A stretch of DNA of 64,000 nucleotides from Naegleria gruberi (GCA_000004985.1 GG738899.1); one strand, 5' to 3'; positions 8,630 through 30,996 are shown, counted from the first letter of the stretch. Made by a program: numbers and translations. Notes: generated from the sequence alone by a model not told the origin.

Positions 8630-9439
8630 ATGGTGTTTCGTCTCTTCTCAAAGATTCGAACAGTTGATGCTAATGATGACCTTTCAACTGTTTCAGAACA
8701 AGAATCTCACGTTCCAGTTCCAGTGGTAGTTTCTGTTAAAGTTTCACCATTAAAAATTACACAACATTCTCTCAAAATATTAGAAAAAGTAAATAGGGAT
8801 GAATTATTAATTGTTGGATGTTTTCTAAATACTTCCGAGCTAGCAAATCTTGCTTCATGTAATCAACAATTACTGGAATTTTTCTTTAATTTGACAATTG
8901 ACAAGGTCAATTTAATAGCAAACAGGAAAAAAGAATTCTCAACTGTGAACATGGATTCAAGAATTGTTTCAATCAAGGATGTTTACCAAGAGAATGATGA
9001 ATTATTCTCAACAACTCAAACAATAATTTGGAAACCACTTGTTCTACATTATTTTCCAAGTTATTCGAAATCTCTGAATGTGAAAAATTGGATGCACATA
9101 TTAAGGAGAAGATTCACCCACCTTCAGATACACATGCCAAGATCCAAAAACCAAAACCAAATTCAAATAATTGGCGGTACTGATAAATATCAAAGGGAAT
9201 TCGTTGAAGGTTGCGAATGGGAATACGAATGTCCACTCAAAATCACCTCAATGACTTTCATTTCCGAGGAAATGGTGTTTTGCAATGTTTGTAAGGAGAA
9301 TATTTACAAAGTTCATAATGAAACTGATTTGAACTATCACACCGAACAAGGACATTGTGTAATTCTAACCGAAAAAAAACGACTTAGAATTGGAAAGACG
9401 TATAATCCTAATTATCATAAACTTCCTGCTGTTCGTTAA
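8630..9439 (+). CDS. hypothetical protein (269 aa) with a possible F-box-like N-terminal region and a C-terminal C2H2-like zinc finger
   Basis: True ATG, single ORF. C..C...............H....H spacing near the C-terminus. No strong family call. Confidence 0.45.
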   Translation: MVFRLFSKIRTVDANDDLSTVSEQESHVPVPVVVSVKVSPLKITQHSLKILEKVNRDELLIVGCFLNTSELANLASCNQQLLEFFFNLTIDKVNLIANRKKEFSTVNMDSRIVSIKDVYQENDELFSTTQTIIWKPLVLHYFPSYSKSLNVKNWMHILRRRFTHLQIHMPRSKNQNQIQIIGGTDKYQREFVEGCEWEYECPLKITSMTFISEEMVFCNVCKENIYKVHNETDLNYHTEQGHCVILTEKKRLRIGKTYNPNYHKLPAVR

Positions 9440-9748
9440 CTCCAATTTTTTTGTTATTATTTTCATGTAGTTTATCAAATAGGTTGCTTTTTCTGAACTA
9501 TCATTTAGTCAACTGAAAAATATGAGAAAGAGGTGAAGTTAATACTCTTGCTCACCGTCGAAGATGGTTTGAATTAAGGTAAACACTTGTACAAAAAGAA
9601 TACAGAGAAGCGTCCAACAGGTGTCATTGTCCTGACATATGCCAAAGTTGTTATATATGCTCAGATTCAAATAAATTCACTTAATTCCTATCCTAGTGAC
9701 TTGTTTCAACTTAAATCGGTTTATATTTCACAAGTTAAGATTATGAAT

Positions 9749-9866
9749 GGCTACGGCCATATCACGATTCATGCACCTCATCCCGTCCGATTTGAGAAGT
9801 TAAGCATCGTCGAGCCACATCAGTACTGAGGTTGGAGACAACTTGGGAACCTGTGGTGCTGTAGTC
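9749..9866 (+). rRNA. 5S ribosomal RNA gene, copy 1 (118 nt)
   Basis: GGCTACGGCCATATCACG...CCGTCCGATTTGAGAAGTTAAGC...GTACTGAGGTTGGAGACAACTTGGGAACCTGTGGTGCTGTAGTC matches the 5S consensus architecture (helix I ends pair, loop C GAGAAGTTAAGC region). It is followed by a T6 Pol III terminator. Confidence 0.9.
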
Positions 9867-9872
9867 TTTTTT
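9867..9872 (+). terminator. Pol III T-run terminator of 5S copy 1
   Basis: TTTTTT immediately after the 5S 3' end. Confidence 0.7.
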
Positions 9873-9971
9873 ATTTTTTCTCTATTTCTATTTTTCTGTG
9901 ATATAAAGCACCTTAATTAATATCAGTTGTGGACTAGATCTATTAGCAACTTATTTTCTTCTTGAATAACT

Positions 9972-10043
9972 TCCCGTGTAGTCCAATGGCTAGGATACCT
10001 GGCTTTCACCCAGGAGGTCCGGGTTCAATTCCCGGCATGGGAG
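9972..10043 (+). tRNA. tRNA-Glu (anticodon UUC), copy 1, 72 nt
   Basis: Cloverleaf: acceptor TCCCGTG/CATGGGA, D arm GTCC..GGAT, anticodon stem CCTGG/CCAGG with loop CTTTCAC (UUC), T arm CCGGG-TTCAATT-CCCGG. 105 nt downstream of 5S copy 1. Confidence 0.9.
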
Positions 10044-10117
10044 GATAATTTTGCAAAAGATAATTTATTTGGTAACCTTTTATTAATGGAAAGGGTTATT
10101 GAAATGGAACAGTTGAC

Positions 10118-10612
10118 TTAATCAATAATGGTTTTCTTTAACTTTTCTTCAATTTCTTCCTTTTGCTTTTTCACACTTTCAGCTTGTTGTTTCAAACTTT
10201 CAATTCGATTATTGAGTTGATCACTGATGGTTCCTCCCAATAACAACACAGTTTCATTTTGTGCATTCATTTCTTTCTGAACCATTTCTAATTCTATTAA
10301 CATGTATTCTAATTGCATAGACATCTCTTGGAAGTCTTCAGCTTTTCTCTTTTTCATTTCTATCATTTCAATGAATTGTTTCTTGACATTTTCAATTTCG
10401 AATAATTCTTGTGATGCTTGTTCAACTCTATAAGCTTTTTCTCCGATCACTTTCGAATAATTCTTGATCAAGGTTCTCCAAAAGGTTTCTGATTGAACCA
10501 ATTGTTCATGAATTTTTTTGTTGATCGAAAGAATATTTCCCAAATGTTTAACGGAGAGAATGGAAAATATTTCAATTTGCAACTCGGAGGGAAGATCAAC
10601 AAAGTTTGACAT
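10118..10612 (-). CDS. small F-box-like / coiled-coil protein (164 aa)
   Basis: True ATG. N-terminal LPSELQIEIFSILSVKHL F-box-like motif, with the rest predicted coiled coil. Confidence 0.5.
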   Translation of the reverse strand: MSNFVDLPSELQIEIFSILSVKHLGNILSINKKIHEQLVQSETFWRTLIKNYSKVIGEKAYRVEQASQELFEIENVKKQFIEMIEMKKRKAEDFQEMSMQLEYMLIELEMVQKEMNAQNETVLLLGGTISDQLNNRIESLKQQAESVKKQKEEIEEKLKKTIID

Positions 10613-11115
10613 TTTTTAAAATTGTTATTGGATGAGATTTTTGAAATTGCATAATATCATGATTTGATGAAGGTAAATAATTTATTGTTGTCATTCTTCC
10701 GATCAAAGCTTTGATTTCATATTAGATTTTATCTATCTTAAAGATTTTGCTTTGTGTTTTCTGGCTGATTCCGAAGGAGAATTAAATAATTTATTTAATT
10801 CATTGTAAAAAAGAAGAATATTAATATTGCAATCAGACTGAATTTGAACCACTCTATTTTTAAATTATACAAAGCAACACAAAGAATATGAAAATGAATG
10901 TGCATATTTGAAATTGAAGATGAGGGTCATTTTCGTAAGTGAATCAGATTCAAATTCAAACACAAGTCTGAAAGTGAAGCTGTGGTGGAGGTTCAAATTG
11001 AAAACAAGCTATTTAAACAGCTCTCGAGATATTCTCACTCCATCAAACCAAACAAAAAAAACAAGTTAACAAACAGCTCATTCAGCTCAATATTCAAATA
11101 CAGTAAATTTAAAAT

Positions 11116-13680
11116 ATGGTCAAGTTCAGTAAAGAAATACTCGAAAGGCTCTTACTCGACAGTAACAAGATTCGTAACATTAGTATTATTGCTCACGTTG
11201 ATCATGGTAAATCAACACTCACTGATCAATTGGCTTTAGCAGCTGGTTTAGTGGATGAAGATGCTGCAGGTGAGAAGAGAGTTTGCGACGTCGATAAGAA
11301 TGAAATTGAAAAGGGTATTACCATTAAATCAACAAGTTTGAGTATGGTATTGGAAAATCCAGACAAGGAGAATGATCATCATTTGGTTAATTTGATCGAT
11401 TGTCCAGGTCACATTGATTTCTCATCTGAAGTTAGTACAGCTTTGAGAATTACTGATGGTGCAGTGTTGATTGTTGATGCTGCTGAAGGTTGTAGAGGTC
11501 AAACTGAAACAGTAATTAGACAATCTCTTCAAGAAAGAATTCGTCCAGTTCTCTTCATTAATAAGGTTGACCGTTTGATTGAAGAAATGCAATTTACTGA
11601 AGAAGAAAGTTATCAAAACTTTTTAAGAATTATCGAGTCTGTGAATGCTCTATTATCAACTTATTCTGATGAGTCAGTTTCTGTTGATCCAGTTGACTGT
11701 AACATTGCTTTTGGATCAGGTAAGATGGGTTGGGCTTTCACTTTGGAGCAATTCGCTCAATTATATAGCAAGAAGTTTAAACTTCCTGTTGAGAAGGTTA
11801 TTAACAAATTATGGGGTGAAAATTATTATGATCACTCAACTAAGAAGTTTACCACTGAACCTTATTCATCGACAAGTGGTCAACAATTGAAACACACTTT
11901 CTGTGAATTCATTTTAGAACCTATTTTCAAGATTTTCAAGTTGGTTAGAGAACATCAAATTTCGAGTGAAGGTATTTTGCCAACAGATTTGGAAAATATC
12001 ATTAGTGCATTGTCTATACCTCTGACGAAAGAAGAAAAGAGAAAGGAGCCGAAACTTTTAGCTAAATCAATCATGAGAAAGTTCCTACCAGCTCACAAAC
12101 CTCTAGTTCAAATGATTATTAACCATTTACCTTCTCCTAAGGAAGCTAAAAAGGTCAGGTATGATAATCTCTACACTGGTGAAGATTTGACAGATCCATA
12201 CGCTACTGGTATTAAGGAATGTGATCCGAATGCACCACTGGTTGTCTATGTCAGTAAGATGGTACCTATGCACTCTAATACTAGCTCTAGTATGAGTAAT
12301 AATGTTGGTCGTTTTATTGCTTTAGCTCGTATCTTCTCTGGCAGTTTGACTCAATCAACTAAGGTAAGAATTCTGGGTCCTAACTATGATCCAATTGCTA
12401 AGAAAGATGTTTTCCATACAAGCATTCAAAGATTGTTAGTCATGGTTGGTAAAAATACTGAAAGCATCACTCAAGCTTCTTGTGGTGCCATCGTCGGTAT
12501 TGTTGGTCTTGACAAGTACATTATCAAATCATGTACATTGACAGAAGAAGGACAAGTTGCATGTATGCCAATTAAGAATATGAAATACTCTGTGAGTCCT
12601 GTTGTTCAAATGGGAGTTGAGCCAGCCAATCCAGCTGATTTATCTCGATTTGTTGAAGGTTTGAAACGTCTCGTTCAAAGTGATCCTCTATTGGAATGTA
12701 AGCAAAATGATAGTGGTCAACATATTCTAGGAACAGCAGGTGAATTGCATTTGGAAATTTGTTTAAAGAATTTGGAAGAAGAATATGCAAGAGGAATTCA
12801 AATTAAAAAGTCTCCTCCTGTTGTCACTTTCCACGAAACAGTTTCAAATAAGAATGGAGACATGGTCATGGCCAGAAGTGCAAACGGTCACAATCGTTTA
12901 TACATGCAAGCTGAACCAATCAGTGAGGAATTGATTGAAATGATTAAGGAAGGTCAATTGCCAATGGATGATCAAAATAAGAGAGCAAAGATTTTAGAAA
13001 TTGACTTTGAATGGGATCCTAGCATAACAAAGAGAATTTGGAGTTTTGGACCTGAAGCTGATAAGGGTAGTAACATTTTGGTTAATGCAACCAAGTCAGT
13101 TGACTATATTAATGAAATTCAACAATATGTTGTCACTAGTTTCCAACAAAGCAGTTCTTCAGGAGGTTTATGTGATGAAGCAATGAGAGGTGTTTTATTC
13201 AAATTTAATGATTGTAATCTTCATGCAGATTCTATCCATCGTGGAGCTGGTCAAATTCTCCAAGCAACATCACGTGTCATGACTGCTAGTCAATTGAGAG
13301 CTGATCCAAAGTTAGTTGAACCAATGTATCTTGTTGAAGTTCAATGTCCTCAATCAGTGATGGGTTCTGTCTATAGTGTCATTTCCAATAGAAGAGGTGT
13401 TATCAAATCTACTGAAATGGTAATTGGTACTCCTCTCGTTAGTATTACAGGTAATTTACCTGTGCTGGAAAGTTTCGGTTTAACAGAAGAGTTGAGAGGT
13501 GTGACTCAAGGACAAGCTTTCCCTCAATGCAGTTTCAGTCATTGGAAAGTAATGGAAGACAATGTTTATGATCCTCAATCTAAAGTTCACAAGCTCATCA
13601 AATCTATCAGAAAGAGAAAGGGTCTTAAGGAAGATATACCACTCTACACAGATTACTGTGATGCAATGCCTAAACAATAA
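11116..13680 (+). CDS. elongation factor 2 family GTPase (854 aa), divergent EF2-like
   Basis: True ATG. G1 AHVDHGKSTLTD, LIDCPGHIDF, NK.D, colinear EF2 domains II-V, and the diphthamide-loop region H.DSIHRGAGQI conserved. C-terminal ...RKRKGLKEDIP as in EF2. By eye only ~50-55% identical to canonical eEF2. Confidence 0.85.
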   Translation: MVKFSKEILERLLLDSNKIRNISIIAHVDHGKSTLTDQLALAAGLVDEDAAGEKRVCDVDKNEIEKGITIKSTSLSMVLENPDKENDHHLVNLIDCPGHIDFSSEVSTALRITDGAVLIVDAAEGCRGQTETVIRQSLQERIRPVLFINKVDRLIEEMQFTEEESYQNFLRIIESVNALLSTYSDESVSVDPVDCNIAFGSGKMGWAFTLEQFAQLYSKKFKLPVEKVINKLWGENYYDHSTKKFTTEPYSSTSGQQLKHTFCEFILEPIFKIFKLVREHQISSEGILPTDLENIISALSIPLTKEEKRKEPKLLAKSIMRKFLPAHKPLVQMIINHLPSPKEAKKVRYDNLYTGEDLTDPYATGIKECDPNAPLVVYVSKMVPMHSNTSSSMSNNVGRFIALARIFSGSLTQSTKVRILGPNYDPIAKKDVFHTSIQRLLVMVGKNTESITQASCGAIVGIVGLDKYIIKSCTLTEEGQVACMPIKNMKYSVSPVVQMGVEPANPADLSRFVEGLKRLVQSDPLLECKQNDSGQHILGTAGELHLEICLKNLEEEYARGIQIKKSPPVVTFHETVSNKNGDMVMARSANGHNRLYMQAEPISEELIEMIKEGQLPMDDQNKRAKILEIDFEWDPSITKRIWSFGPEADKGSNILVNATKSVDYINEIQQYVVTSFQQSSSSGGLCDEAMRGVLFKFNDCNLHADSIHRGAGQILQATSRVMTASQLRADPKLVEPMYLVEVQCPQSVMGSVYSVISNRRGVIKSTEMVIGTPLVSITGNLPVLESFGLTEELRGVTQGQAFPQCSFSHWKVMEDNVYDPQSKVHKLIKSIRKRKGLKEDIPLYTDYCDAMPKQ

Positions 13681-13770
13681 GAGTTTTAGCATTTAGTAAT
13701 AAATTGCCTTTTTCTCCAATCTTTCAACAGTACATAACAATCGGGGATGATTCTTAACAAGTTTGAATCA

Positions 13771-13800
13771 ATATCTATCAATATCTATCAATATCTCAAA
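13771..13800. repeat. short tandem repeat (ATCTATCAAT)x3
   Basis: Direct reading of the sequence. Confidence 0.6.
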
Positions 13801-14019
13801 TTGAATCAATCTTCAATAACCATATGGTAAAGTATTATTTTTTATTTTAACAAAAATTCAGTAAGGATTTTGAGGCGCTTGTTACCATTGTTGATTTTCT
13901 TGATGACTGCTTTCTATCATTGATTAGCGTTTTCAGAGGCGATACTAGAAATGATATTGAAGACAATGATTTATAATAAGGAAACAATACAAAAAGTTGA
14001 AGGAGAAACAAGCAAAAGT

Positions 14020-14100
14020 TGCAGAAGGTGGGATTTGAACCCACGAAGCTTGCGCAGTAGAACTTGAGTCTACCCCCTTTGACCACTCGGGAACCCCTGC
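14020..14100 (-). tRNA. tRNA-Leu (anticodon CAA), type II with long variable arm, 81 nt
   Basis: The reverse complement folds with acceptor GCAGGGG/CCTTCTGC, anticodon stem GTAGA/TCTAC with loop CTCAAGT (CAA, G37), a long variable arm, and T arm GTGGG-TTCAAAT-CCCAC. Confidence 0.8.
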
Positions 14101-15303
14101 TTCATATAATCTTATAAACCTGGTTGTTCACTTTGAATATACCAACATTCTGTATTTTCAAGTTAGCCCATTGCTCACCTTAGCATCTTATTTTCATTAT
14201 CTTCCACAATATTCTTTATCATCTTTATTCGCCTTGAAACCAATCCTTAATTTATTCTCCCAGCTTATTCAACTATTTTCTTGAATTGAATTTCCAATTT
14301 TCCCAATTTTTTAACCATAACTTTTCCTCGCAACATTTCACACTTTCACAACCAATATAACATCATTGAGGATGCAAGATTGAAAAAACCATTGACTGTA
14401 CTTCTACAGGATCTTTTCTGTAGGAATACATAAACTCGACTTTTTTGAGTCAATCTGACCTTTGAGGTTAACCAAGATGAAGACTCTGTAGTCACATATC
14501 TTGAGCATGATATCGAACTGGAAACATGCTTCGTTGTAGGTTTCCTCGTTCATAGATGATTGCTGCATTCCTTACCAGCCATGGTTTGTGAATGGGGGAT
14601 TTGTGAACATGCAGATTGGTACCTTAAACTTTTTATCAATTAAAAGAAAAATATTACAACTATGCCCGAGAGCTGCCAATTAAACTCTATAACAAAACTT
14701 TCCTTTTATTATTAATCAACATGGCCCGTCGTATCTTCATTGCACTGTATTGGAGTTAGGGTTTTATTTTGTCTTGGAAAGCAAATATTTGAAGACTCAA
14801 ATTCGAAATTTGAAGGTTTATTGATCAACCACAAGTTTCTCTTTCTAAATAGATAAAATTCAAAGGTGATAAATATATGGTCACGTTGCAAGTTCTTCTA
14901 AACAATAACTTACTGAACCAACAATCAATAGATTCGTTGCCTTCACTGTTCATACAGTCAAAGACTGTAGCGGGATTGTCGCCATATTCCTGGCAGGCTT
15001 CCCGTCTAATTTACCAATTGAACAATATCACAACATATTCCCTTTTACTGTATTCCTGTAATAAGGGCAGTACATTGATGTAAAAGCTTTCTTAAAAGTT
15101 ATCAGGTTTCTCCTGTTGATTATTGTTTGATAAGAAATAATTACCATTAAGGCAAATTCATTTAAAATTACAATCCATTAGTTCCTGACAAATAACTATG
15201 CATGAATTTGTGACTTATGGCCAAACTGTAGGATAAAATCATTTTGTTAAAAAAAATGAAACATTTGGTGCAGATTTATATTGCAGAAATTAGGTTAATT
15301 GAT

Positions 15304-15421
15304 GGCTACGGCCATATCACGATGAATGCACCTCATCCCGTCCGATTTGAGAAGTTAAGCATCGTCGAGCCACATCAGTACTGAGGTTGGAGACAACTTG
15401 GGAACCTGTGGTGCTGTAGTC
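15304..15421 (+). rRNA. 5S ribosomal RNA gene, copy 2 (118 nt), identical to copy 1 apart from flanks
   Basis: Same sequence as copy 1. T7 run follows at 15422-15428. Lies 39 nt from the stop codon of the convergent cyclase gene. Confidence 0.9.
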
Positions 15422-15428
15422 TTTTTTT
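15422..15428 (+). terminator. Pol III T-run terminator of 5S copy 2
   Basis: TTTTTTT immediately after the 5S 3' end. Confidence 0.7.
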
Positions 15429-15459
15429 CATATCAAAATTTGTTTTATTAAGCTTGCTA

Positions 15460-17901
15460 TTAAAGTAAGTCTTGAAGTGAATCACTGCAATTCTCCTCAG
15501 GCAACAATTGCAACAATCGTTTAGACCTTTCGAATAAATTTAGAACAATTGGCGAATCACTCCAAACATTAGCCAATCTTTCACACAAGCAATACAATTG
15601 GAAATAGTGCTGAGAGAACAACAAATCCCTTACCAGCAACAAATCCTTTTCCATCTTCTTCTCATATTCAGAGGCCTCATTCCTGAATGCTACTAAATTG
15701 TAAATGCAAGTTGAATTACTCTTTCCTCTCAATTTGAGTAGATCAACAAAGTGAAAGATAAATTCCTCCCTCACCTTATCAACAATCTCACCACTCACAA
15801 GGATGGAACCAAAGTTTTGAGCGAGTGATTGTAATCTTAATGCAATGTTACACTCGTCACCAATTACTGTAAATGACATTCTGCTCTTACTGCCCAAACA
15901 ACCAACAAGCATTTCACCACATGTAATTCCAATAGAAATATCCAATTGAATACCCATTAGAATCTTCCATTTAGAGTTCAAATCCTCAATTACTTCCATG
16001 CATTCAATGGCAGTTTTACAAGCTCTTGATTCATGATTTGCACATCTGAATGATTTTTCATTCCAAAATACCATTACAGTACCCTCAATGAATTTATCAA
16101 TAATTCCACAATGGGCCTCAATGACCTGTGATATGGAGCTATAATATTCTGTAATGATTCGAATAAATGCTGTAGTTTCGGTCTTTTCAGAAAGTGTTGC
16201 AAAATTATTGATACCACAATACAGAACTGTCATGCTCGGTTCTAATTTCATACCAATTTTACCGTACTCTTGCTTATTTGAAACAATCATCTTGGCAATA
16301 ATGTGTGGAACATACTTGCTGAATGCAAATATTCCTCTTTGGGTGATTTGAATATTTTCGTCCATTTCCTTGATTTCACTGAAAATTGTAACATGTTTCT
16401 TGTATGGAGTTTCTAAACCTTTGAATGAAATGAGATGATTCATTTGCTTGGTAATGTCTATCAGTGGTTGATTAATTGATTGAACAACGCATAAAACAAT
16501 TAAGGTTTCTAATACAAAAAAAATGATAAATAAAATTACAGAAACAACACCAGAAGAAATGACCTCGGAGAAATATGTCTTCTCCAAACTCGTCGTGACC
16601 ACAGTGCATGTCAGATTGTAGGTATCCCTCACTGTTGAAACTTCTACAATTTTCCCCTTATAATGAAATATGTGAGATTCGTTTGCATTCAGATTCAAGT
16701 TGTTTAAATCAGAGCGATGAATTTCTTCAGAAATATCATCAATAGATGGATCGTTCTCACTGCTTCTTGCAAAAATACCTCCAGTTCCATTGATAATGAA
16801 TGAACTGTATAGAAGAGCTGTGGATGAGTTCGCAACATTGACATTTTGAATTTTGAATTCCAAAGCAACTATTCCAAATAAATAATCATTATGTGCACCC
16901 TTCATACGCTCTAATTCCTCAACTTGAATGGCATGAAGAGTGGAATTACCTCCTGACAATGTATAATTTCTTACTGGAATATGACTATATATGGGATAGA
17001 CAAAAAAAACTGAATATAAACCCTCCTCGTTCAAGGAAGCACTTGTCCAACATGGTCCAGCTACCTTCTTCGACTGCCTAATCTCTCTGTACCAATCACA
17101 ATCGGTTGGTGATGAATTAATTGACTGGTTTTCTGCCTTGCTGTCAACCAAATCTAAATCATCATATGACAACAGGTGTGAATTCGTATCTCTTATTCTA
17201 TACGTTAAACGAATATGCTCCTCTTCTGAAGAATTATTTGGAAACTTTCCAGTTTCGAACAAATTATGATTTTTAAATATCAAGTAATAATCGTCAAATC
17301 TTACAAATTGAATGGAAACTAGTTGAGTACTGGTAAGCATTCTGTCAGTGGCTCTTATTACTCGCATCCATTCAATTTGTTTGTCCAATTCCATCATTTT
17401 CCCAATAAATAAATTGTAAAACATCAAGTCAACCAGATTTCTAGCAGAATTGTGAATTTTCACAACTCTCATTCTCAATCTGTACGTAGTTTCCCATCTT
17501 TCATATCCACTTGTGCTTTTGTAAATCTCAGATCCACTTGAGAAGAGCAAAACGAAAGAAGCCAAAATTCCAAAGAATGTTTGAAACACAAACAAGACGA
17601 AAATTAAATTCATAATTCGGAAACCATATCTAGTGCAGTTTAGTCCACATTCTCCACATTTTGTTTGATGGTTCTTCTTCTTTGATTTCTTTAGAGACAA
17701 TATTTGACTTTTTGATTCAGTTTCGTTTGTTTCTTCTTTTGCATTGTAGCGATGAATTATTGGAAACTCATTACCATCATCGCTATCAAAATCAGATGAG
17801 AACGCATCCATGAAATCTAATCTAGACTGTTTTCTCATTTTCCCTCCTCCAATAATTGATTCTCTTCTGTTTTGATGTTTTCCATTCGTGTGTGAAAACA
17901 T
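15460..17901 (-). CDS. receptor-type class III adenylyl/guanylyl cyclase (813 aa): cytosolic N-terminus, TM, ~330-aa extracellular domain, TM, C-terminal cyclase catalytic domain
   Basis: True ATG. Two strong hydrophobic helices. The C-terminal domain has cyclase signatures (VLYCGINNFATLSE, ...SFTVIGDECNIALRLQSLAQNFGSILVSGEIV...). The architecture resembles sensor cyclases of the Dictyostelium ACG type. Confidence 0.75.
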   Translation of the reverse strand: MFSHTNGKHQNRRESIIGGGKMRKQSRLDFMDAFSSDFDSDDGNEFPIIHRYNAKEETNETESKSQILSLKKSKKKNHQTKCGECGLNCTRYGFRIMNLIFVLFVFQTFFGILASFVLLFSSGSEIYKSTSGYERWETTYRLRMRVVKIHNSARNLVDLMFYNLFIGKMMELDKQIEWMRVIRATDRMLTSTQLVSIQFVRFDDYYLIFKNHNLFETGKFPNNSSEEEHIRLTYRIRDTNSHLLSYDDLDLVDSKAENQSINSSPTDCDWYREIRQSKKVAGPCWTSASLNEEGLYSVFFVYPIYSHIPVRNYTLSGGNSTLHAIQVEELERMKGAHNDYLFGIVALEFKIQNVNVANSSTALLYSSFIINGTGGIFARSSENDPSIDDISEEIHRSDLNNLNLNANESHIFHYKGKIVEVSTVRDTYNLTCTVVTTSLEKTYFSEVISSGVVSVILFIIFFVLETLIVLCVVQSINQPLIDITKQMNHLISFKGLETPYKKHVTIFSEIKEMDENIQITQRGIFAFSKYVPHIIAKMIVSNKQEYGKIGMKLEPSMTVLYCGINNFATLSEKTETTAFIRIITEYYSSISQVIEAHCGIIDKFIEGTVMVFWNEKSFRCANHESRACKTAIECMEVIEDLNSKWKILMGIQLDISIGITCGEMLVGCLGSKSRMSFTVIGDECNIALRLQSLAQNFGSILVSGEIVDKVREEFIFHFVDLLKLRGKSNSTCIYNLVAFRNEASEYEKKMEKDLLLVRDLLFSQHYFQLYCLCERLANVWSDSPIVLNLFERSKRLLQLLPEENCSDSLQDLL

Positions 17902-18165
17902 CTTTTTGTGAATTGTATTTTGTAAAAATTTCTTTTCTTATTGGAGTAATTCATCATTTTAGGATAGAGTTCATTGTTTAGAGTTTAAACCTATTTAACA
18001 ATATTCCATATAACACTAGATTCTTATGGATGTTCAATTAGTATTAATGCAGCTTTGGGAATTAGGTTCTTAGAATAGAAATTGGTTAGCACGTTTTAAA
18101 GAGAACATTGTAATAAAATAATTAATTCCGTGTATATATGGAAACTATTTTCATAATGAATAACA

Positions 18166-18237
18166 TCCCGTGTAGTCCAATGGCTAGGATACCTGGCTTT
18201 CACCCAGGAGGTCCGGGTTCAATTCCCGGCATGGGAG
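18166..18237 (+). tRNA. tRNA-Glu (anticodon UUC), copy 2, identical to copy 1
   Basis: Identical 72-nt sequence. Shared flanks with copy 1 (AATAAC..TCCCGTG upstream, GGATAATTTTGC.AAGATAATTT downstream). Confidence 0.9.
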
Positions 18238-19530
18238 GATAATTTTGCCAAGATAATTTTCTTTGAACAAGTATGAAGATTTTTGAGACATTGTTCTTAT
18301 TTGGAATGTTTTGAATACAAGATGTGAATCCTATTACTCTGATATGAAATTGAGCAAATTTCCAACAACTATTTTTGAGCATGTGGATATTAGCTGGCCT
18401 TGACCAGTTCAATGAAACGCATCTGGGTTTCCTCACTCAACACGCAGCAAAATCACTCACAATCAATTATTTGATGAGCATTCAACAGACCTTTGATTGC
18501 AACACCTCAAACCATTTCAACTTCCTTCACATACATCATGTACATCTACAATCAACAAGGTAGATCAACAAAGTGTTGAGGATAAGCAACAAGATGGTTC
18601 ACACTTCATAATCAACAAGACGAGTTTCATGATGCAGCCTTTTCAAAGTGGCCTTTCACATGTAAGGTTGGCGCTTGTAATTGAACTTCTAAAGTCTCTG
18701 AATGCAACAAGCAGATACTCAACATGCCATACATACAAATTTTTGCATCACTTGAATAACCTTTTCATTTGTCTATCAACACTCATGCGCTTCTTTTTTA
18801 TTGGTTATTGTTGGAAGAAAATTCCACGAGTGTAAGAGAGCCAAGTATAAAGGCAACCATACTACTATACATAATAATCTATTAAAACAATAGTTGATAA
18901 TGCCAAGCACTGTTCTAATATTCATGATGAGAGCAAGCCTTACACAATGAAGGAGTTGAACATTTTTAAATAAACTAGAAGCCAAGCATCAATGATGCCC
19001 AATATAATAACAATTCTTAAAGTTATTATTTATCCTGGAAGTTATTCATTATATTATGAAGGTATTTATTACTAAATATTACCTGAGAAAGATGATAAGT
19101 TGAGAAGGAATACAAGTTGAGGTGAGATCATCTCTCTCGGGTTGGTCTTCCAAAAATTGTTCCAATTCAATTTCCTTTTCATCATCTTTTGAAGAGAGAT
19201 GCAAAAAGGAATACTAGACATTTAACCATTTGCCAGGTTTTGAGATAATGGTGGGCTTAGAATTTAACGAAAAAGGTTTGCCTGTTGTTTGCCTTCTTGA
19301 TGTGTTTTGAAGCTATGGGAGTACACTACAATTTCCTTTTTGCTTAAAATTTTTATCTCAAAACGCGGCATGGGAATATCCTTTTCACTTTGAAATAGAA
19401 CGGTCATCTATTCTTCCTTAGAGACAACGCAGAATGGATATGTCAAGATTTGGAAAAGGTATGAACCTCTATTTAACTGTCTTACTCTAGAATGTAACAA
19501 TACACCAAAATTCAATAACAAAAAAACAAC

Positions 19531-20925
19531 ATGATAAGTGAATCGAGAGGAAGAGCACAATTTTTCATTGGCATATTGCAGTGGCCAGTTCTAGTGTGGG
19601 CAATTTTGAATTTAGCTACAGGAATACTGGGCATGATTGTGTATGGTGCATTTACAGCCAGTTATGGACCCGTCTATATTGTGAATCAATTTGTTGGCTT
19701 GTGGTTGTGTGTCTTATTGACCTTTTTTAGTGCACAAACAGTGTATATTGAATTGAAGCCAGGCGATTCGAGTGAGCGAAGAATTCTCAGAGTGATTACT
19801 TTGGTGGTGAACATTCTGTATTTTGGTGTCATCCTGGTTGGTTCATTCATTCTATTTGTGTTATATTCGAGAGCTGGAACTCGTCCTGATGCTATTGTCT
19901 GGACAATTTTGATTATGATTATTTGTTTGCTGAATGTTATTGCTTTGATTTGCAGATGGTATTCAAGTGTTGGAGCTGGAAAGGAATTCATTCCAGACGA
20001 ATCAAAATGTTTTCAACTCATTAAGGAAAAGTCTGCTGGTGCATCTGGTGTTAGCATGTGTTTGTACATTACTGCCATTGTGGTGAATGTATTGTTGAGA
20101 TTCATCTTTTTGATTTTCCTTGGATTGTTGATTAGTGGCAGTTCTGCTGCTTCTAATATTAAGAATTATCCAATGAAGGGAAAACTAATTTCAGTTCCAT
20201 TGAACGATGGTTCAGGAAGAAGTCAAAACATTCACTATTTGTGCGAGGGTCCAACTGAGGGAAATTCATTCACATTCCTCTTTGAAGGAGATTTCACACA
20301 TGGTTATGCTGATTATTATGATATTCAAAGATATTTGACAGCTCTTGGTCGTCGTTCTTGCATTTATGATAAACCAGGCTTAGGATATTCTGACTATTTG
20401 TACAAGGACCAAAAGGATGAATCTACATTTTACTACAACTTTTTAACGAGTATTGGAGAAAAGACTCCATATGTCATGGTTGGCTGGGGAGGTGGTGGAC
20501 ATATCATTTACAAATTTGCTTTGGAACATCCTGAACTAGTCAAGTCGCTCACTTTCCTAGATGTTTTCCCACCTGGAATTGAATTTACCTCAATGAAGGA
20601 TTTGAAAAATTGGAGTCAAGAGCAATTTAATACGTACAAGAACCAAGAATTGAGAGGAAGAAGAACCTTATTTGGAATTATCAATGGATTGGCAGTTCCG
20701 TGGGGACTCATGTCTATCTTTGTTGGATCATCATCCAATACCAGCAATGCAGATGAAATTACTTTCTGGATGAGCACTGAAAAGACATGGATTACTCAAT
20801 CATCAGTTCTCGATACAGCATATGCTGACACTGGATCCTATCTGAAACAAAATCTCACATCCACCATAAGTGTCAATTTGGTTGTTACCAAGCATGATGA
20901 TAATTGGGTCATTAAGAATAATTAG
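19531..20925 (+). CDS. membrane-anchored alpha/beta-hydrolase-fold protein, epoxide-hydrolase/dehalogenase-like (464 aa)
   Basis: True ATG. About 200 aa of N-terminal hydrophobic helices, then HYLCEGP...FLFEGDFTHGY..., and VMVGWGGGGHI, which resembles the HGxP / nucleophile-elbow context of alpha/beta hydrolases. Confidence 0.55.
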   Translation: MISESRGRAQFFIGILQWPVLVWAILNLATGILGMIVYGAFTASYGPVYIVNQFVGLWLCVLLTFFSAQTVYIELKPGDSSERRILRVITLVVNILYFGVILVGSFILFVLYSRAGTRPDAIVWTILIMIICLLNVIALICRWYSSVGAGKEFIPDESKCFQLIKEKSAGASGVSMCLYITAIVVNVLLRFIFLIFLGLLISGSSAASNIKNYPMKGKLISVPLNDGSGRSQNIHYLCEGPTEGNSFTFLFEGDFTHGYADYYDIQRYLTALGRRSCIYDKPGLGYSDYLYKDQKDESTFYYNFLTSIGEKTPYVMVGWGGGGHIIYKFALEHPELVKSLTFLDVFPPGIEFTSMKDLKNWSQEQFNTYKNQELRGRRTLFGIINGLAVPWGLMSIFVGSSSNTSNADEITFWMSTEKTWITQSSVLDTAYADTGSYLKQNLTSTISVNLVVTKHDDNWVIKNN

Positions 20926-21518
20926 GAAGGAGCCGATTCCACTAATTGTAAATTCGAAATTGAGAAGAATAGGTACTATCTCAACTCACAATTGAATATG
21001 ATTCCAAAACAGAATGGAGGATCCACAACTTATTGTACAGATGATGCTTGTGGACTTGCATATTACACATTTACAAATCCAAAGTACACAGCTGATACAT
21101 TGAACACACTTTATGCCAAATAAATTGTAAATAAATTGCCATCGATTATGTGTCATCTTTCAATCAGAAATCAAAAAAAATGAACACAATATCTACCTTC
21201 TCAGATCCATCTCATCAAAAATTATAGAATATTAATTTTAAATAATGAAAAATCATCATGAAATTAACCTCAAATTGAAGTGATAAGGAATACCGTAAAA
21301 TTTCACTCCGGAGTAAATATACTTCACAAACAGATACTTTCTCCAAGAGACGTTGAGCTGTGTGTTCCATAACTTAAAAGATCCAATGTTGCACTCCATG
21401 AATCAACGTTGCCAAAGTTCCTGACGCCATGAAACTATCCTTCGCTCAATCCTTAATTTTCCCTTAATTTTCCATTAAATCAAAAAAAATTGAAAATCAG
21501 GATTAATTATATTAACAT

Positions 21519-22904
21519 ATGCCAAGGATTGTGGATTCTCATCAAATACTTTTGAGTTTGATCTTGTTGGCCCTAATATTTCACATAGTAACTTGTTCAT
21601 CATCACAGCGGACACAGGATCATGAAGTGAAACGATGCATCAATTACTCACCCATCTTCTTCAATACTAAGAATATCGATGTTGCAGTGGCTTCCGAAGA
21701 AAATCACTACAAGATCCTTCTTCCCTATTTGAAACAGCATGGTGTAAATTGTATAAGATTGTACTTTACTGATTGGAGGAGGTATCATGCCGATTTCTTC
21801 AAAGTTGTGAACGAGTTACACATGAAGGTTATGATTACATTCTGGCAATACACTGATTCGACTCCAAATCTTGCAGATTCCAAGGAGAGACAAAAGACGC
21901 ATGATGATGCAGTCTTTTTGTTCAAGACAATTTCGACAGAACCTTCAGTTTTTATGATTTTCTATGGAAATGAATTGGATTTGATCTATCCCTATCAAAT
22001 TCCACTAGTTTTCGTTGCATTTCAGGAATTTATAGATTTGCAACGACAGGTAATTCCAGATCCAACGAAGAGAAAATCACTTTCTCTTCCATTATCTGAT
22101 TCTGGTTTTAATTTGAAATATGTTGCTGATTATGATTGGGTTCAAGCAGATTATAACACTTTTAACATTTATAGAGGTTCGACATTTCTTGACTTTGTGG
22201 AATCGTACAAGATGGTCAATCCGAGCAAACCTCTCATTATAGCCGAAACTGGTGCTTCTTCATACTATCAGTTTCCACATCAAATACCAAAACCTTATTA
22301 TGTTTACAATGCAAGTGATCCAAGTATTCAATTGGGAGAACGATATCAAGCCATGAATCATCAAAGAGTCTTGATGGAATATATTGCCTCTTCGGTGGTC
22401 AACCCAGGTTTATTGGATGTTTTATGTTTATTCGAAGCAACAGATGAATATTGGAAAACTTCAAATGATCTCAATCCATATTGTCAGTCAAGGGATGGTC
22501 ATTTAGCTTCAAGACAGAATACCTGCGGATATCAAAATGTTAATTACAAGGACAAGATGATTCATGAGGCATTTCTGGGTTTGATGCGTCAGGATTATTC
22601 GAAAGATGAATTTTCACTCATTCCAAAACCTTCATTCAATGTGATGAGTTTTTACTATAGAAGTATGGAGAATATCAGTCAGTGGTCATGTGAAATATCT
22701 CAGAGTGGCTGGAATTCAGACATTTTGAACACGAGAATAGTGCCAGATATTGTGTATAATGTTCCATACGAAACCTTACGATTATTTGAAACTGTATTTC
22801 AAACCAAGATTGGAGAGAAGATATTCACTTGTAAATTTAAAGGAAAAATGGAAATATTACAAGCCCTTCCTCTTAAAATGAATCTTTACAATTACCATAT
22901 ATAG
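21519..22904 (+). CDS. secreted TIM-barrel glycoside-hydrolase-like protein (461 aa), GH17/GH72-like, beta-glucan-active candidate
   Basis: True ATG followed by a signal peptide / anchor (LLSLILLALIFHIVTC). ...ILLPYLKQHGVNCIRLY..., a candidate catalytic acid in FYGNELD and a nucleophile in IIAETGASS, spaced like retaining TIM-barrel glucanases or glucanosyltransferases. May instead be the 5' exon of the downstream GT48 gene (see findings). Confidence 0.5.
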   Translation: MPRIVDSHQILLSLILLALIFHIVTCSSSQRTQDHEVKRCINYSPIFFNTKNIDVAVASEENHYKILLPYLKQHGVNCIRLYFTDWRRYHADFFKVVNELHMKVMITFWQYTDSTPNLADSKERQKTHDDAVFLFKTISTEPSVFMIFYGNELDLIYPYQIPLVFVAFQEFIDLQRQVIPDPTKRKSLSLPLSDSGFNLKYVADYDWVQADYNTFNIYRGSTFLDFVESYKMVNPSKPLIIAETGASSYYQFPHQIPKPYYVYNASDPSIQLGERYQAMNHQRVLMEYIASSVVNPGLLDVLCLFEATDEYWKTSNDLNPYCQSRDGHLASRQNTCGYQNVNYKDKMIHEAFLGLMRQDYSKDEFSLIPKPSFNVMSFYYRSMENISQWSCEISQSGWNSDILNTRIVPDIVYNVPYETLRLFETVFQTKIGEKIFTCKFKGKMEILQALPLKMNLYNYHI

Positions 22905-30123: not shown

Positions 30124-30996
30124 TTAATCAGAACTATTTATTCTAGCTCGGAGCTTCTTTACTCTTTTCCTCAATTTGATTGGTTTTGTAATTCTATTTT
30201 CCACATCGGACTTGATTTTAGTCTTCTTTACAATAGTTTCTGATTCCTTATCTTCATTTTCAAGTTTGATTCGAGTGTTTGCATATATAGCGTCAGAACT
30301 AGTAGTTGTACCTTGTGTATTAGTGTCATTGGTAGTATTAGTATTATTATTAAACTTAACATTGTTAGTACTATTACCAGCTTGAATATTGTTCAGGCTA
30401 ATACTATTATCATTACTAATTGTATTGTTGCTGTTGCTATTTGTAATAGTATTAGTGTTATTAACCCTATTAGTAGTATTATCAGCTTGAATAGTATTCA
30501 GGCCAATGCTATTATCATTATTACTAATTGTATTGTTATTGCTAGTTGTAATAGTATTAAAATTATTAAATAATTCCTGTCGTGGTTGAATATTAACTTT
30601 AGGTTTGATAGAATAAGTAACTCCATCAACATTAACCAAGCAAGAAATAGGTTTATCCGATGAGAGTGAAATATCCATCATTGAAGTTGATATCATCACT
30701 TGATGTTGTTGTTTCTCCACAGTAGCACCATCACTTATCTGCATACTACTATTGAACGGTGTCAATGCCGGTGCTGATGGTGCTGATGATGATGAAGGAA
30801 TTAATATGTTGCTATCATCAACATTATTAATTCTTGATGATGAACGTGTTGGACGTGGTTTTCTCTTCTTCTTCAATATCTGTTCTTCGTAGAGTTTAAC
30901 AAGATGAGCCTTTAGATGGGCTCCTTTAGGAATTTCAATATTATTCTCTTCAAGAATTTCCTTCAAACCAGCAACAGTGTAACCATTCGCATCCAT
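30124..30996 (-). CDS. SAP-domain protein with an Asn/Thr-rich tandem-repeat region (290 aa)
   Basis: True ATG. N-terminal YTVAGLKEILEENNIEIPKGAHLKAHLVKLYEEQ matches the SAP helix-turn-helix motif. The middle contains two ~100-nt in-frame tandem copies encoding N/T/S-rich sequence. Confidence 0.55.
   Translation of the reverse strand: MDANGYTVAGLKEILEENNIEIPKGAHLKAHLVKLYEEQILKKKRKPRPTRSSSRINNVDDSNILIPSSSSAPSAPALTPFNSSMQISDGATVEKQQHQVMISTSMMDISLSSDKPISCLVNVDGVTYSIKPKVNIQPRQELFNNFNTITTSNNNTISNNDNSIGLNTIQADNTTNRVNNTNTITNSNSNNTISNDNSISLNNIQAGNSTNNVKFNNNTNTTNDTNTQGTTTSSDAIYANTRIKLENEDKESETIVKKTKIKSDVENRITKPIKLRKRVKKLRARINSSD
30370..30575. repeat. ~100-bp tandem duplication (2 copies, ~85% identical) inside the coding sequence of the SAP-domain gene
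   Basis: ACCAGCTTGAATATTGTTCAGGCTAATACTATTATCATTACTAATTGTATTGTTGCTGTTGCTATTTGTAATAGTATTAGTGTTATTAAC is repeated with substitutions. It stays in frame on the minus strand. Confidence 0.7.

Follow-up and report, generated by a model that had tools for sequence, protein, structure and literature searches.

Small RNA genes lying singly among protein genes on a Naegleria gruberi chromosome: probable independent Pol III units rather than copies of a 5S–tRNA module

How do 5S rRNA and tRNA genes come to stand one by one between protein genes, and yet within a few kilobases of each other, on a Naegleria chromosome? The window analysed here, a stretch of 64,000 nt, is scaffold_55:160001-224000 of Naegleria gruberi NEG-M. 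It is ordinary chromosomal DNA, with ORFs that exactly match the N. gruberi NEG-M proteins EFC39468-39471 and EFC39526-39530 of one 331-kb contig. The original prediction for this DNA described three 5S genes and two identical tRNA-Glu(UUC) genes, dispersed among protein genes, and took them to suggest duplication of a 5S–tRNA module. Rfam and ARAGORN confirm all five genes where they had been placed, and bring in two that had been overlooked, a tRNA-Leu(CAA) and a U3 snoRNA (Table 1). We propose, with a probability of roughly 0.85, that these are independent, self-contained Pol III units scattered among protein genes, and that they multiplied as minimal units and not as a composite module.

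Table 1. Features of the window discussed in the text (window coordinates; offsets are relative to the gene).
Feature	Position	Strand	Identification and remarks
5S_1 upstream promoter-proximal block	9716-9748	+	TATA-like TTTATATT at -29..-22
5S_1 rRNA gene	9749-9867	+	RF00001, 100.3 bits; scaffold_55:169752
tRNA-Glu(UUC) tGlu_1	9972-10043	+	ARAGORN; RF00005, 67 bits; 72 nt
F-box-like protein gene EFC39527	10118-10612	-	PF12937, weak; exact NCBI N. gruberi protein match
EF2-like GTPase gene EFC39469	11116-13680	+	Pfam EF-G/EF-2 domains; exact NCBI N. gruberi NEG-M match
tRNA-Leu(CAA)	14020-14100	-	ARAGORN; RF00005, 48.7 bits; T4 run 14014-14017
U3 snoRNA	14392-14620	+	RF00012, 76.7 bits, E = 5.8e-15; full-length model match (1-219)
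5S_2 rRNA gene	15304-15422	+	RF00001, 105.4 bits; scaffold_55:175307
Class III nucleotidyl cyclase gene	15460-17901	-	PF00211, E = 5e-14
tRNA-Glu(UUC) tGlu_2	18166-18237	+	ARAGORN, Rfam; 72 nt, identical to tGlu_1
5S_3 rRNA gene	56205-56323	+	RF00001, 103.5 bits, no non-canonical pair flagged; scaffold_55:216208

The three 5S genes span positions 1-120 of the Rfam model, whose gathering score is 38, and share the canonical three-helix-junction structure as their minimum-free-energy fold. Variation had been ascribed to the third copy only, but 5S_1 also differs from 5S_2, by two adjacent changes (TC for GA at 9769-9770), one of which breaks a G-C helix pair. The two substitutions that separate 5S_3 from 5S_2, G2A and a C to T at 56272, keep the pairing, converting G.U to A-U and C-G to U.G, respectively. 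5S_2 is likely the family consensus. 5S_1, with its broken helix pair, may be a weaker variant; its folding energy is -37.6 kcal/mol, compared to -41.5 kcal/mol for 5S_2.

Upstream of the genes, 18-21 of the 30 positions from -30 to -1 are identical among the three 5S copies, a figure that drops to 6-9 of 30 at -60 to -31, and no significant similarity among the copies was found beyond this block. A TATA box upstream of N. gruberi 5S genes has been described, together with an internal control region, terminators made of T-runs and a lack of linkage to rDNA (PMC3369914), and the -30 block would be a promoter element of the TFIIIB/TATA type. Counted from the last gene nucleotide, the terminators are T6-A-T6 in 5S_1, T7 in 5S_2 (ending at 15428) and T6 in 5S_3. 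In a tandem 5S rDNA array, copies follow one another head to tail and are separated by homologous spacers of a few hundred bp, whereas the window copies have unrelated flanks and protein genes between them. 5S_3 ends 34 nt from the stop codon of a convergent ORF at 56358, and no tRNA gene lies between it and the end of the window, 7.7 kb downstream, nor in the 38 kb upstream.

The two tRNA-Glu genes form a cloverleaf with a TTC anticodon, and an A box, TAGTCCAATGG, and a B box, GGTTCAATTCC, can be read from their sequence. Their flanks are identical at 21 of 30 positions from -30 to -1 and at 24 of 30 from +1 to +30, the latter match requiring a 1-nt indel, while random 30-mers agree at 8.3 +/- 2.5 positions. 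The common upstream block is TGAATAAC, with a weaker likeness extending back to about -30. The flanks are thus shared well above chance, as had been claimed, except that the 'TCCCGTG' assigned to the upstream flank is in fact part of the tRNA acceptor stem. As a repeat family (D2), the pair amounts to 131 nt at 88% identity, from -31 to +28. A T4 run follows tGlu_1 at 10049-10052; indeed, T-runs come soon after every small RNA gene. In an environmental contig that is 97% identical to the window, tGlu_1 is found at the equivalent place, with its 3′ half and trailer conserved (orthologue L016).

Similarity between copies is limited to the interval from -30 to about +28 and is at chance level outside it. 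A 5S unit would comprise about 30 bp of conserved upstream sequence that includes the TATA-like element, then the internal control region, and a terminator of T6-T7, and a tRNA unit would comprise A and B boxes of canonical form together with a T4 run; the minimal unit that was duplicated would be some 130-170 bp long, that is, the gene plus about 30 bp per side. It is likely, to judge from these sequence features, that the genes are transcribed. The flank identity may reflect either recent duplication or a family-wide constraint on promoters and terminators, two readings that are inseparable with two tRNA-Glu and three 5S copies. Five Pol III genes within 8.5 kb, where 0.25 are expected, represent a density far above the genomic mean, a point that weighs against our reading, since it implies either a process acting regionally or selection in favour of clusters. 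Short-range duplication and/or gene conversion would most likely account for the two 5S genes, three tRNAs and U3 found in these 8.5 kb.

The arrangement of small RNA genes singly between protein genes is already catalogued for the N. gruberi genome. The published list of 5S genes (PMC3369914, PLoS One 2012, Table S1) holds 279 copies, including all three of the window, and the 5S spacings that we find, 5555 and 40901 nt, are those of the corresponding scaffold_55 entries. That list was obtained by BLASTn on a draft assembly, so that arrays could lie collapsed in unassembled sequence; in our re-analysis of its coordinates, the 264 near-full-length copies occur on 113 scaffolds in loose clusters, with a minimum spacing on one scaffold of 1104 bp. 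Gaps shorter than 6 kb make up 23% of the total, where a Poisson model predicts 3.8%. Although the same paper classes the 5S genes as 'tandem', no two full-length copies in its table are less than 1.1 kb apart; tRNA or U3 neighbours are not discussed in it. Hence the published coordinates reveal no canonical tandem arrays elsewhere, next to which the window copies might have been taken for pseudogenes, and the view of these as dispersed, apparently functional Pol III genes is upheld. A similar picture has been given for the 924 tDNAs of N. gruberi, only 16% of which are clustered (PMC2888827).

In Naegleria, the 18S/5.8S/28S rDNA resides on an extrachromosomal plasmid that carries only these genes (PMC5805870). 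Accordingly, 5S is the only rRNA encoded on the chromosomes, and there is no chromosomal rDNA array for its genes to join. In this respect, Naegleria differs from Schizosaccharomyces pombe and Yarrowia lipolytica, where 5S genes (30 copies and about 108-109, respectively) are likewise dispersed outside the rDNA as independent Pol III units in a compact genome (PMC2566860).

How, then, should the association of 5S, tRNA and U3 genes be understood? The U3 gene, whose score far exceeds the RF00012 gathering score of 34, and the tRNA-Leu gene are divergently oriented, with the tRNA upstream of U3 at a distance of 291 nt, and a T5 run follows U3 at 14630-14634 (+10 to +14), while only 5.3% of random positions have such a run within 24 nt. 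It is tempting to see here a looser version of the Euglenozoan Pol III neighbourhood, in which a Pol III-transcribed U3 would need, or gain from, the divergent tRNA-Leu, and in which the co-location of 5S and tRNA genes would be selectively maintained; the tRNA might help U3 through recruitment of TFIIIC/TFIIIB or through nucleosome exclusion. In trypanosomatids, U3 expression requires an upstream divergent tRNA, and a 2.7-kb region of Leishmania contains U3, 10 tRNAs, U1 and 5S (PMC2784804), and each of the 11 5S genes of L. major has tRNA genes beside it (PMC2695483). Discoba includes Naegleria, a member of Heterolobosea, as well as Euglenozoa. Were this reading correct, a tRNA-assisted U3 promoter arrangement would already have existed in the ancestor that Heterolobosea share with Euglenozoa. 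We nevertheless consider it unlikely. The tRNA–U3 distance in trypanosomatids is 71-106 nt (PMC2784804), well below that seen here, and the genes of a Leishmania cluster are packed tightly, with about 200 bp between them on average and no protein genes in their midst, whereas protein genes are interspersed in the window and just one of its three 5S genes adjoins a tRNA. Furthermore, the divergent pair is a single instance, spotted post hoc, 84% of N. gruberi tDNAs are unclustered (PMC2888827), and the one N. fowleri locus examined is not syntenic and lacks small-RNA genes. The only point that is mildly new is that tRNA-Leu and U3 stand in divergent orientation close to 5S genes, which recalls the Leishmania and trypanosome Pol III clusters.

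Duplication of a composite 5S–tRNA-Glu module is a very improbable explanation. It would have generated a first pair at 9749/9972 and a second at 15304/18166, with the cyclase gene later inserted or bracketed, and it draws on the presence, within 8.5 kb and in equal order on one strand, of two 5S genes and an identical pair of tRNA-Glu genes, at the elevated density already mentioned. The start-to-start spacing, however, is 5555 nt for the 5S genes and 8194 nt for the tRNA-Glu genes. The spacer of the first pair, 104 nt long (the predicted adjacency of 5S_1 and tGlu_1 is confirmed), has no counterpart elsewhere in the window, and the flanks cease to resemble each other some 30 nt away from each gene, so that similarity never bridges 5S and tRNA. 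Moreover, "pairing" applies to 5S_1 alone, since 5S_2 and tGlu_2 are 2.7 kb apart and 5S_3 has no tRNA; nor is there one on L006, an environmental contig with an N. gruberi-like 5S. Genome-wide, chance alone would give 1.25-3.1 adjacencies of 5S and tRNA genes at 105 nt or less, and one is seen here.

There is also very little to be said for the suggestion that the Pol III genes served as landing pads for tRNA-targeting retroelements, with decayed remnants in the ORF-poor intervals 14101-15303 and 18238-19530. Retrotransposons that target tRNA genes are known from other compact protist and yeast genomes (PMC5911963, PMC6101501), and the gaps that contain the two intervals rank largest and fourth largest among the 32 inter-ORF gaps of the window. 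Large gaps are not peculiar to these places, since 8 of the 32 exceed 1 kb, and the first interval turns out to hold the U3 gene, leaving at most 683 nt unexplained there. In the remaining ORF-poor sequence, stop codons recur at intervals of 13-24 codons whichever of the six frames is read, and no Rfam match is obtained at E <= 1. Pfam, even at E = 0.1-1, gives no match in 18238-19530 (six frames and ORFs) or in the longer ORFs of 14621-15303, and neither flagged interval contains a protein gene in the reference annotation. Once the 5S and tRNA-Glu genes are set aside, the window has no direct or inverted repeats above chance-level short matches, and nothing recognizable as an LTR, as a remnant of a reverse transcriptase or integrase, or as a repeat was detected beside the six Pol III genes. 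With Dictyostelium TRE5/TRE3 and DGLT-A and yeast Ty1/Ty3, the locus shares solely the Pol III genes, as potential safe-haven targets, in a compact genome; it differs in that no element is detectable next to these genes.

Least probable of all is that 5S expression depends on a neighbouring tRNA, independently of TFIIIA, as in the Yarrowia tRNA–5S dicistrons: BLAST found no TFIIIA in N. gruberi (PMC3369914), and in Yarrowia 48 of the 108 5S genes are expressed, without TFIIIA, from tRNA–5S fusions (PMC2566860), but here the order is reversed, with the 5S upstream of the tRNA, the T6-A-T6 terminator separates 5S_1 from tGlu_1, two of the three window 5S genes and the environmental copy on L006 have no adjacent tRNA, and a conserved TATA-like block precedes every one of the window 5S genes. 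In Yarrowia, about half of the 5S genes are fused 3′ of a tRNA and co-transcribed with it, whereas the sole tRNA adjacent to a 5S in the Naegleria window lies downstream, past a strong terminator. A candidate for a dicistron of that type, an unterminated tRNA 5′ of a 5S, was sought, and no tRNA is present within 300 nt upstream of any window 5S.

The stop codon of EFC39527 is 74 nt from the 3′ end of tGlu_1, and tGlu_2 is 264 nt upstream of the first ATG of the cyclase ORF. This ORF, as had been predicted, is bracketed by 5S_2 and tGlu_2, and it converges on 5S_2: its stop codon is separated from the 5S T-run by 31 nt (between 15428 and 15460), and from the 5S 3′ end by 37 nt, instead of the 39 nt initially given for the T-run. 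It encodes 813 aa, compared to 743 aa in the annotated model EFC39528, and the protein is 99% identical to an N. gruberi predicted protein (P0131).

Seven small-RNA genes were located in the window with Rfam and ARAGORN. The original prediction is largely correct after several corrections: its 5S rRNA and tRNA-Glu(UUC) genes are real, and the two tRNA-Glu copies, of 72 nt each, are identical, but a tRNA-Leu(CAA) gene and a U3 snoRNA gene had been overlooked. The interval 14101-15303, described as ORF-poor, contains the U3 gene. The tRNA-Leu and U3 genes are now placed in a stretch that is without a protein gene in the reference annotation.

Small-RNA genes of the window, with the evidence for each and the start positions preceded by the word TGAA(T)
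Gene	Position	Strand	Evidence	TGAA(T) within 12 nt upstream of
5S_1 (5S rRNA)	9749-9867	+	Rfam, 100-105 bits across the three copies (gathering score 38)	9749
5S_2 (5S rRNA)	15304-15422	+	Rfam, 100-105 bits across the three copies (gathering score 38)	
5S_3 (5S rRNA)	56205-56323	+	Rfam, 100-105 bits across the three copies (gathering score 38)	56205
tGlu_1 (tRNA-Glu(UUC))	9972-10043	+	Rfam/ARAGORN, 72 nt	9972
tGlu_2 (tRNA-Glu(UUC))	18166-18237	+	Rfam/ARAGORN, 72 nt	18166
tRNA-Leu(CAA)	14020-14100	-	Rfam/ARAGORN	14100 (- strand)
U3 snoRNA	14392-14620	+	Rfam, 76.7 bits (gathering score 34)	14392

The EF2-like ORF and eight further ORFs of the window exactly match proteins of N. gruberi NEG-M from one 331-kb contig, and the UniProt identifiers D2VUK7 to D2VUL2 are consecutive along window 8630-22904. 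A 2012 listing of putative 5S genes in the JGI N. gruberi assembly has 279 entries (PMC3369914), and its scaffold_55 entries at 169752, 175307 and 216208 reproduce the 5S spacing of the window exactly (5555 and 40901 nt). Therefore, the window is scaffold_55:160001-224000, and its three 5S genes were already catalogued.

Since the 18S, 5.8S and 28S genes of Naegleria are carried by an extrachromosomal circular element (PMC5805870 and related announcements), there is no chromosomal rDNA array able to house 5S. In the published coordinates (PMC3369914), the 264 near-full-length 5S copies are spread over 113 scaffolds, the smallest spacing on the same scaffold being 1104 bp, and 23% of 5S-5S gaps are below 6 kb, where a Poisson model predicts 3.8%. 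Finding three copies in 64 kb is not rare, as 36 of the 264 stretches of that length starting at a 5S gene hold at least three. Thus, as predicted, the 5S genes are dispersed, in loose clusters without tandem arrays. Table 1 of PMC3369914 scores the N. gruberi 5S as “tandem arrangement: Y”, an entry contradicted by its own Table S1, where no full-length copies lie closer than 1104 bp. The tDNAs number 924, with only 16% clustered (PMC2888827). The reading of dispersed Pol III genes is right and already published, and the arrangement is similar to that in S. pombe and Yarrowia, whose 5S genes are also dispersed (PMC2566860). What is gained is a correction of the “tandem” label and confirmation that N. 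gruberi 5S is chromosomal, dispersed and self-contained, in contrast to the other rRNAs on the plasmid; otherwise, the significance goes little beyond housekeeping. Locally, five Pol III genes occur in 8.5 kb where 0.25 would be expected, a non-random regional density in line with the surplus of short gaps between 5S genes.

How did these copies arise? Across the entire window, just two families of repeats are substantive: 5S (172 nt, from -33 to +20) and tRNA-Glu (131 nt, from -31 to +28). The shared flanks noted originally are real: the tRNA-Glu copies agree at 21/30 positions upstream and, when a 1-nt indel is allowed, at 24/30 downstream, and the 5S copies at 18-21/30 in -30 to -1, against 8.3 +/- 2.5 for random 30-mers. 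However, they are confined to about 30 nt; farther out, identity falls to a chance level of 6-9/30, and local alignment scores are the same as those of shuffles. A BLAST similarity of 5S_1 and 5S_3 reaching -76 had no significance with the proximal 30 nt excluded. The conserved unit is then the gene plus about 30 bp per side, and the simplest account, we infer, is that such minimal units were duplicated locally and/or underwent gene conversion. This span would correspond to the needs of a Pol III unit, namely a TFIIIB/TATA region upstream, a promoter within the gene and a terminator.

The alternative, that a joint 5S-tRNA module was duplicated, draws on the closeness of 5S_1 to tGlu_1, yet from published gene counts about 1.25-3.1 adjacencies of at most 105 nt are expected genome-wide by chance. 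The start-to-start spacings of the two families are unequal (5555 and 40901 nt versus 8194 nt), the 104-nt spacer that separates 5S_1 from tGlu_1 has no match elsewhere in the window, 5S_2 and tGlu_2 lie 2.7 kb apart, and no tRNA is found near 5S_3. Together with the brevity of the shared flanks, this argues against the module. Co-transcription of 5S_1 and tGlu_1 is also unlikely, because the spacer opens with a T6-A-T6 terminator. The defining features of the tRNA-5S dicistrons of Yarrowia fail here, the gene order being reversed and a terminator standing between the genes. The likeness to the Pol III clusters of Leishmania is only loose, as those are compact, with every 5S accompanied by tRNAs and spacers of about 200 bp on average (PMC2695483).

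The proposal that these genes serve as landing pads for tRNA-targeting retroelements, with remnants in the ORF-poor intervals, found no support within the window. Once U3 is subtracted, 683 nt (14621-15303) and 1293 nt (18238-19530) are left unexplained, with a stop every 13-24 codons in all six frames. Pfam gave no match at E <= 0.1-1 for the ORFs of the two intervals or for the six-frame translation of 18238-19530 with stops masked, and Rfam none at E <= 1 in the unexplained stretches. No repeats were found in the intervals by a search within the window, and in the reference annotation they are free of protein genes. Gaps between ORFs exceeding 1 kb make up 8 of the 32 in the window.

Among the 5S copies, 5S_2 looks like the family consensus. 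The two changes originally noted in 5S_3 are there, at positions where pairing is preserved by both, but 5S_1 also differs from 5S_2, with TC in place of GA at neighbouring positions, and one of these substitutions disrupts a helix pair; the minimum free energies are -37.6 kcal/mol for 5S_1 and -41.5 for 5S_2. The canonical three-way junction is predicted for all three, and a T6-T7 run lies directly 3' of each. The 3' ends of 5S_2, 5S_3 and tGlu_1 are 37, 34 and 74 nt, respectively, from the stops of convergent ORFs (window 15422-15462, 56323-56360 and 10043-10120). At such distances, the neighbouring mRNAs must either have very short 3' ends or run antisense into the Pol III genes. No consistent pattern of this kind was seen in contigs of other taxa.

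These contigs come from a scan of metagenomes for a 24-nt core of 5S, which returned 14. All 14 carry one 5S gene and no tRNA, which speaks against the 5S-tRNA module, though weakly for the 13 that are from other taxa. One (L006) has the sole N. gruberi-like 5S, with 1 difference; in the others (L002-L005 and L007-L015, mostly VFQM/VFQO), the gene, where complete, differs at 26-37 of 119 positions, two genes being partial. In those 13, each 5S is single, among ORFs, with unrelated flanks. They are from one or more other eukaryotes, in which 5S is likewise dispersed. An exact tRNA-Glu 43-mer had no match in genome_contigs or viral_contigs, and a search for an environmental cyclase orthologue covering 5S_2/tGlu_2 gave only the N. 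gruberi protein and one paralogue. The N. fowleri locus of the EF2-like orthologue, with no synteny and no small-RNA genes in 22.6 kb, is uninformative.

The metagenome ENA ERZ929261 (PRJEB11402) contains a close relative of N. gruberi NEG-M, the source of two contigs (L016 and L017). L016 is 97.07% identical in DNA to window 9999-13303 and keeps the 3' half of tGlu_1 in place, ending inside that gene, short of 5S_1. Its trailer retains GATAATTTTG and AAGATAATTT, although the stretch that separates them has an indel of 4-6 nt, and this hints weakly that these blocks (T-run terminators) may be constrained. L017 encodes a protein identical to that of a window ORF and ends 3.5 kb short of 5S_3. 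This metagenome could provide orthologous flanks for phylogenetic footprinting of Pol III genes.

As for upstream elements, TGAA(T) occurs at -12 to -1 of 6/7 small-RNA genes and in 9% of random 12-mers. TTTCACA is present ahead of 5S_1 (9726) and 5S_3 (56182) and twice upstream of U3 (14336 and 14344), its enrichment in the window being only marginal (43 observed, 32 expected). Both may be shared promoter-proximal words, though the environmental N. gruberi-like 5S has neither.

One point is, to our knowledge, undescribed: the tRNA-Leu(CAA) gene is divergent from U3 across a 291-nt spacer, with a T5 run at 14630-14634, 10-14 nt past U3. The layout recalls the tRNA-dependent Pol III U3 of trypanosomatids, but the spacer there is 71-106 bp (PMC2784804), so that the one in the window is about three times longer. 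Because this spacing feature differs and there is a single instance, a trypanosomatid-like tRNA-assisted Pol III unit would be a low-probability lead. If functional, the arrangement would bear on the age of trypanosomatid-style tRNA-assisted snRNA promoters.

Some features of the neighbouring protein genes may be recorded. The EF2-like gene (11116-13680, +; EFC39469) has three further NEG-M copies on other scaffolds (EFC43897, EFC40138 and EFC40215); the four share one cluster of at least 90% identity, EFC43897 being 99% identical to the window copy. Their identity to canonical EF2 is only ~47%, and orthologues at 57-65% occur in N. lovaniensis, N. fowleri and Willaertia. They look like a multi-copy family of divergent EF2 paralogues. 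The cyclase ORF (15460-17901, -) is uninterrupted and encodes 813 aa; the reference EFC39528 has 743 aa, with 99% identity over 91% of the ORF, and the annotation probably either starts further downstream or includes a spurious intron. Finally, ORF 30124-30996 (EFC39530) contains a 105-nt tandem duplication at 30316-30525, its two copies being 74% identical.
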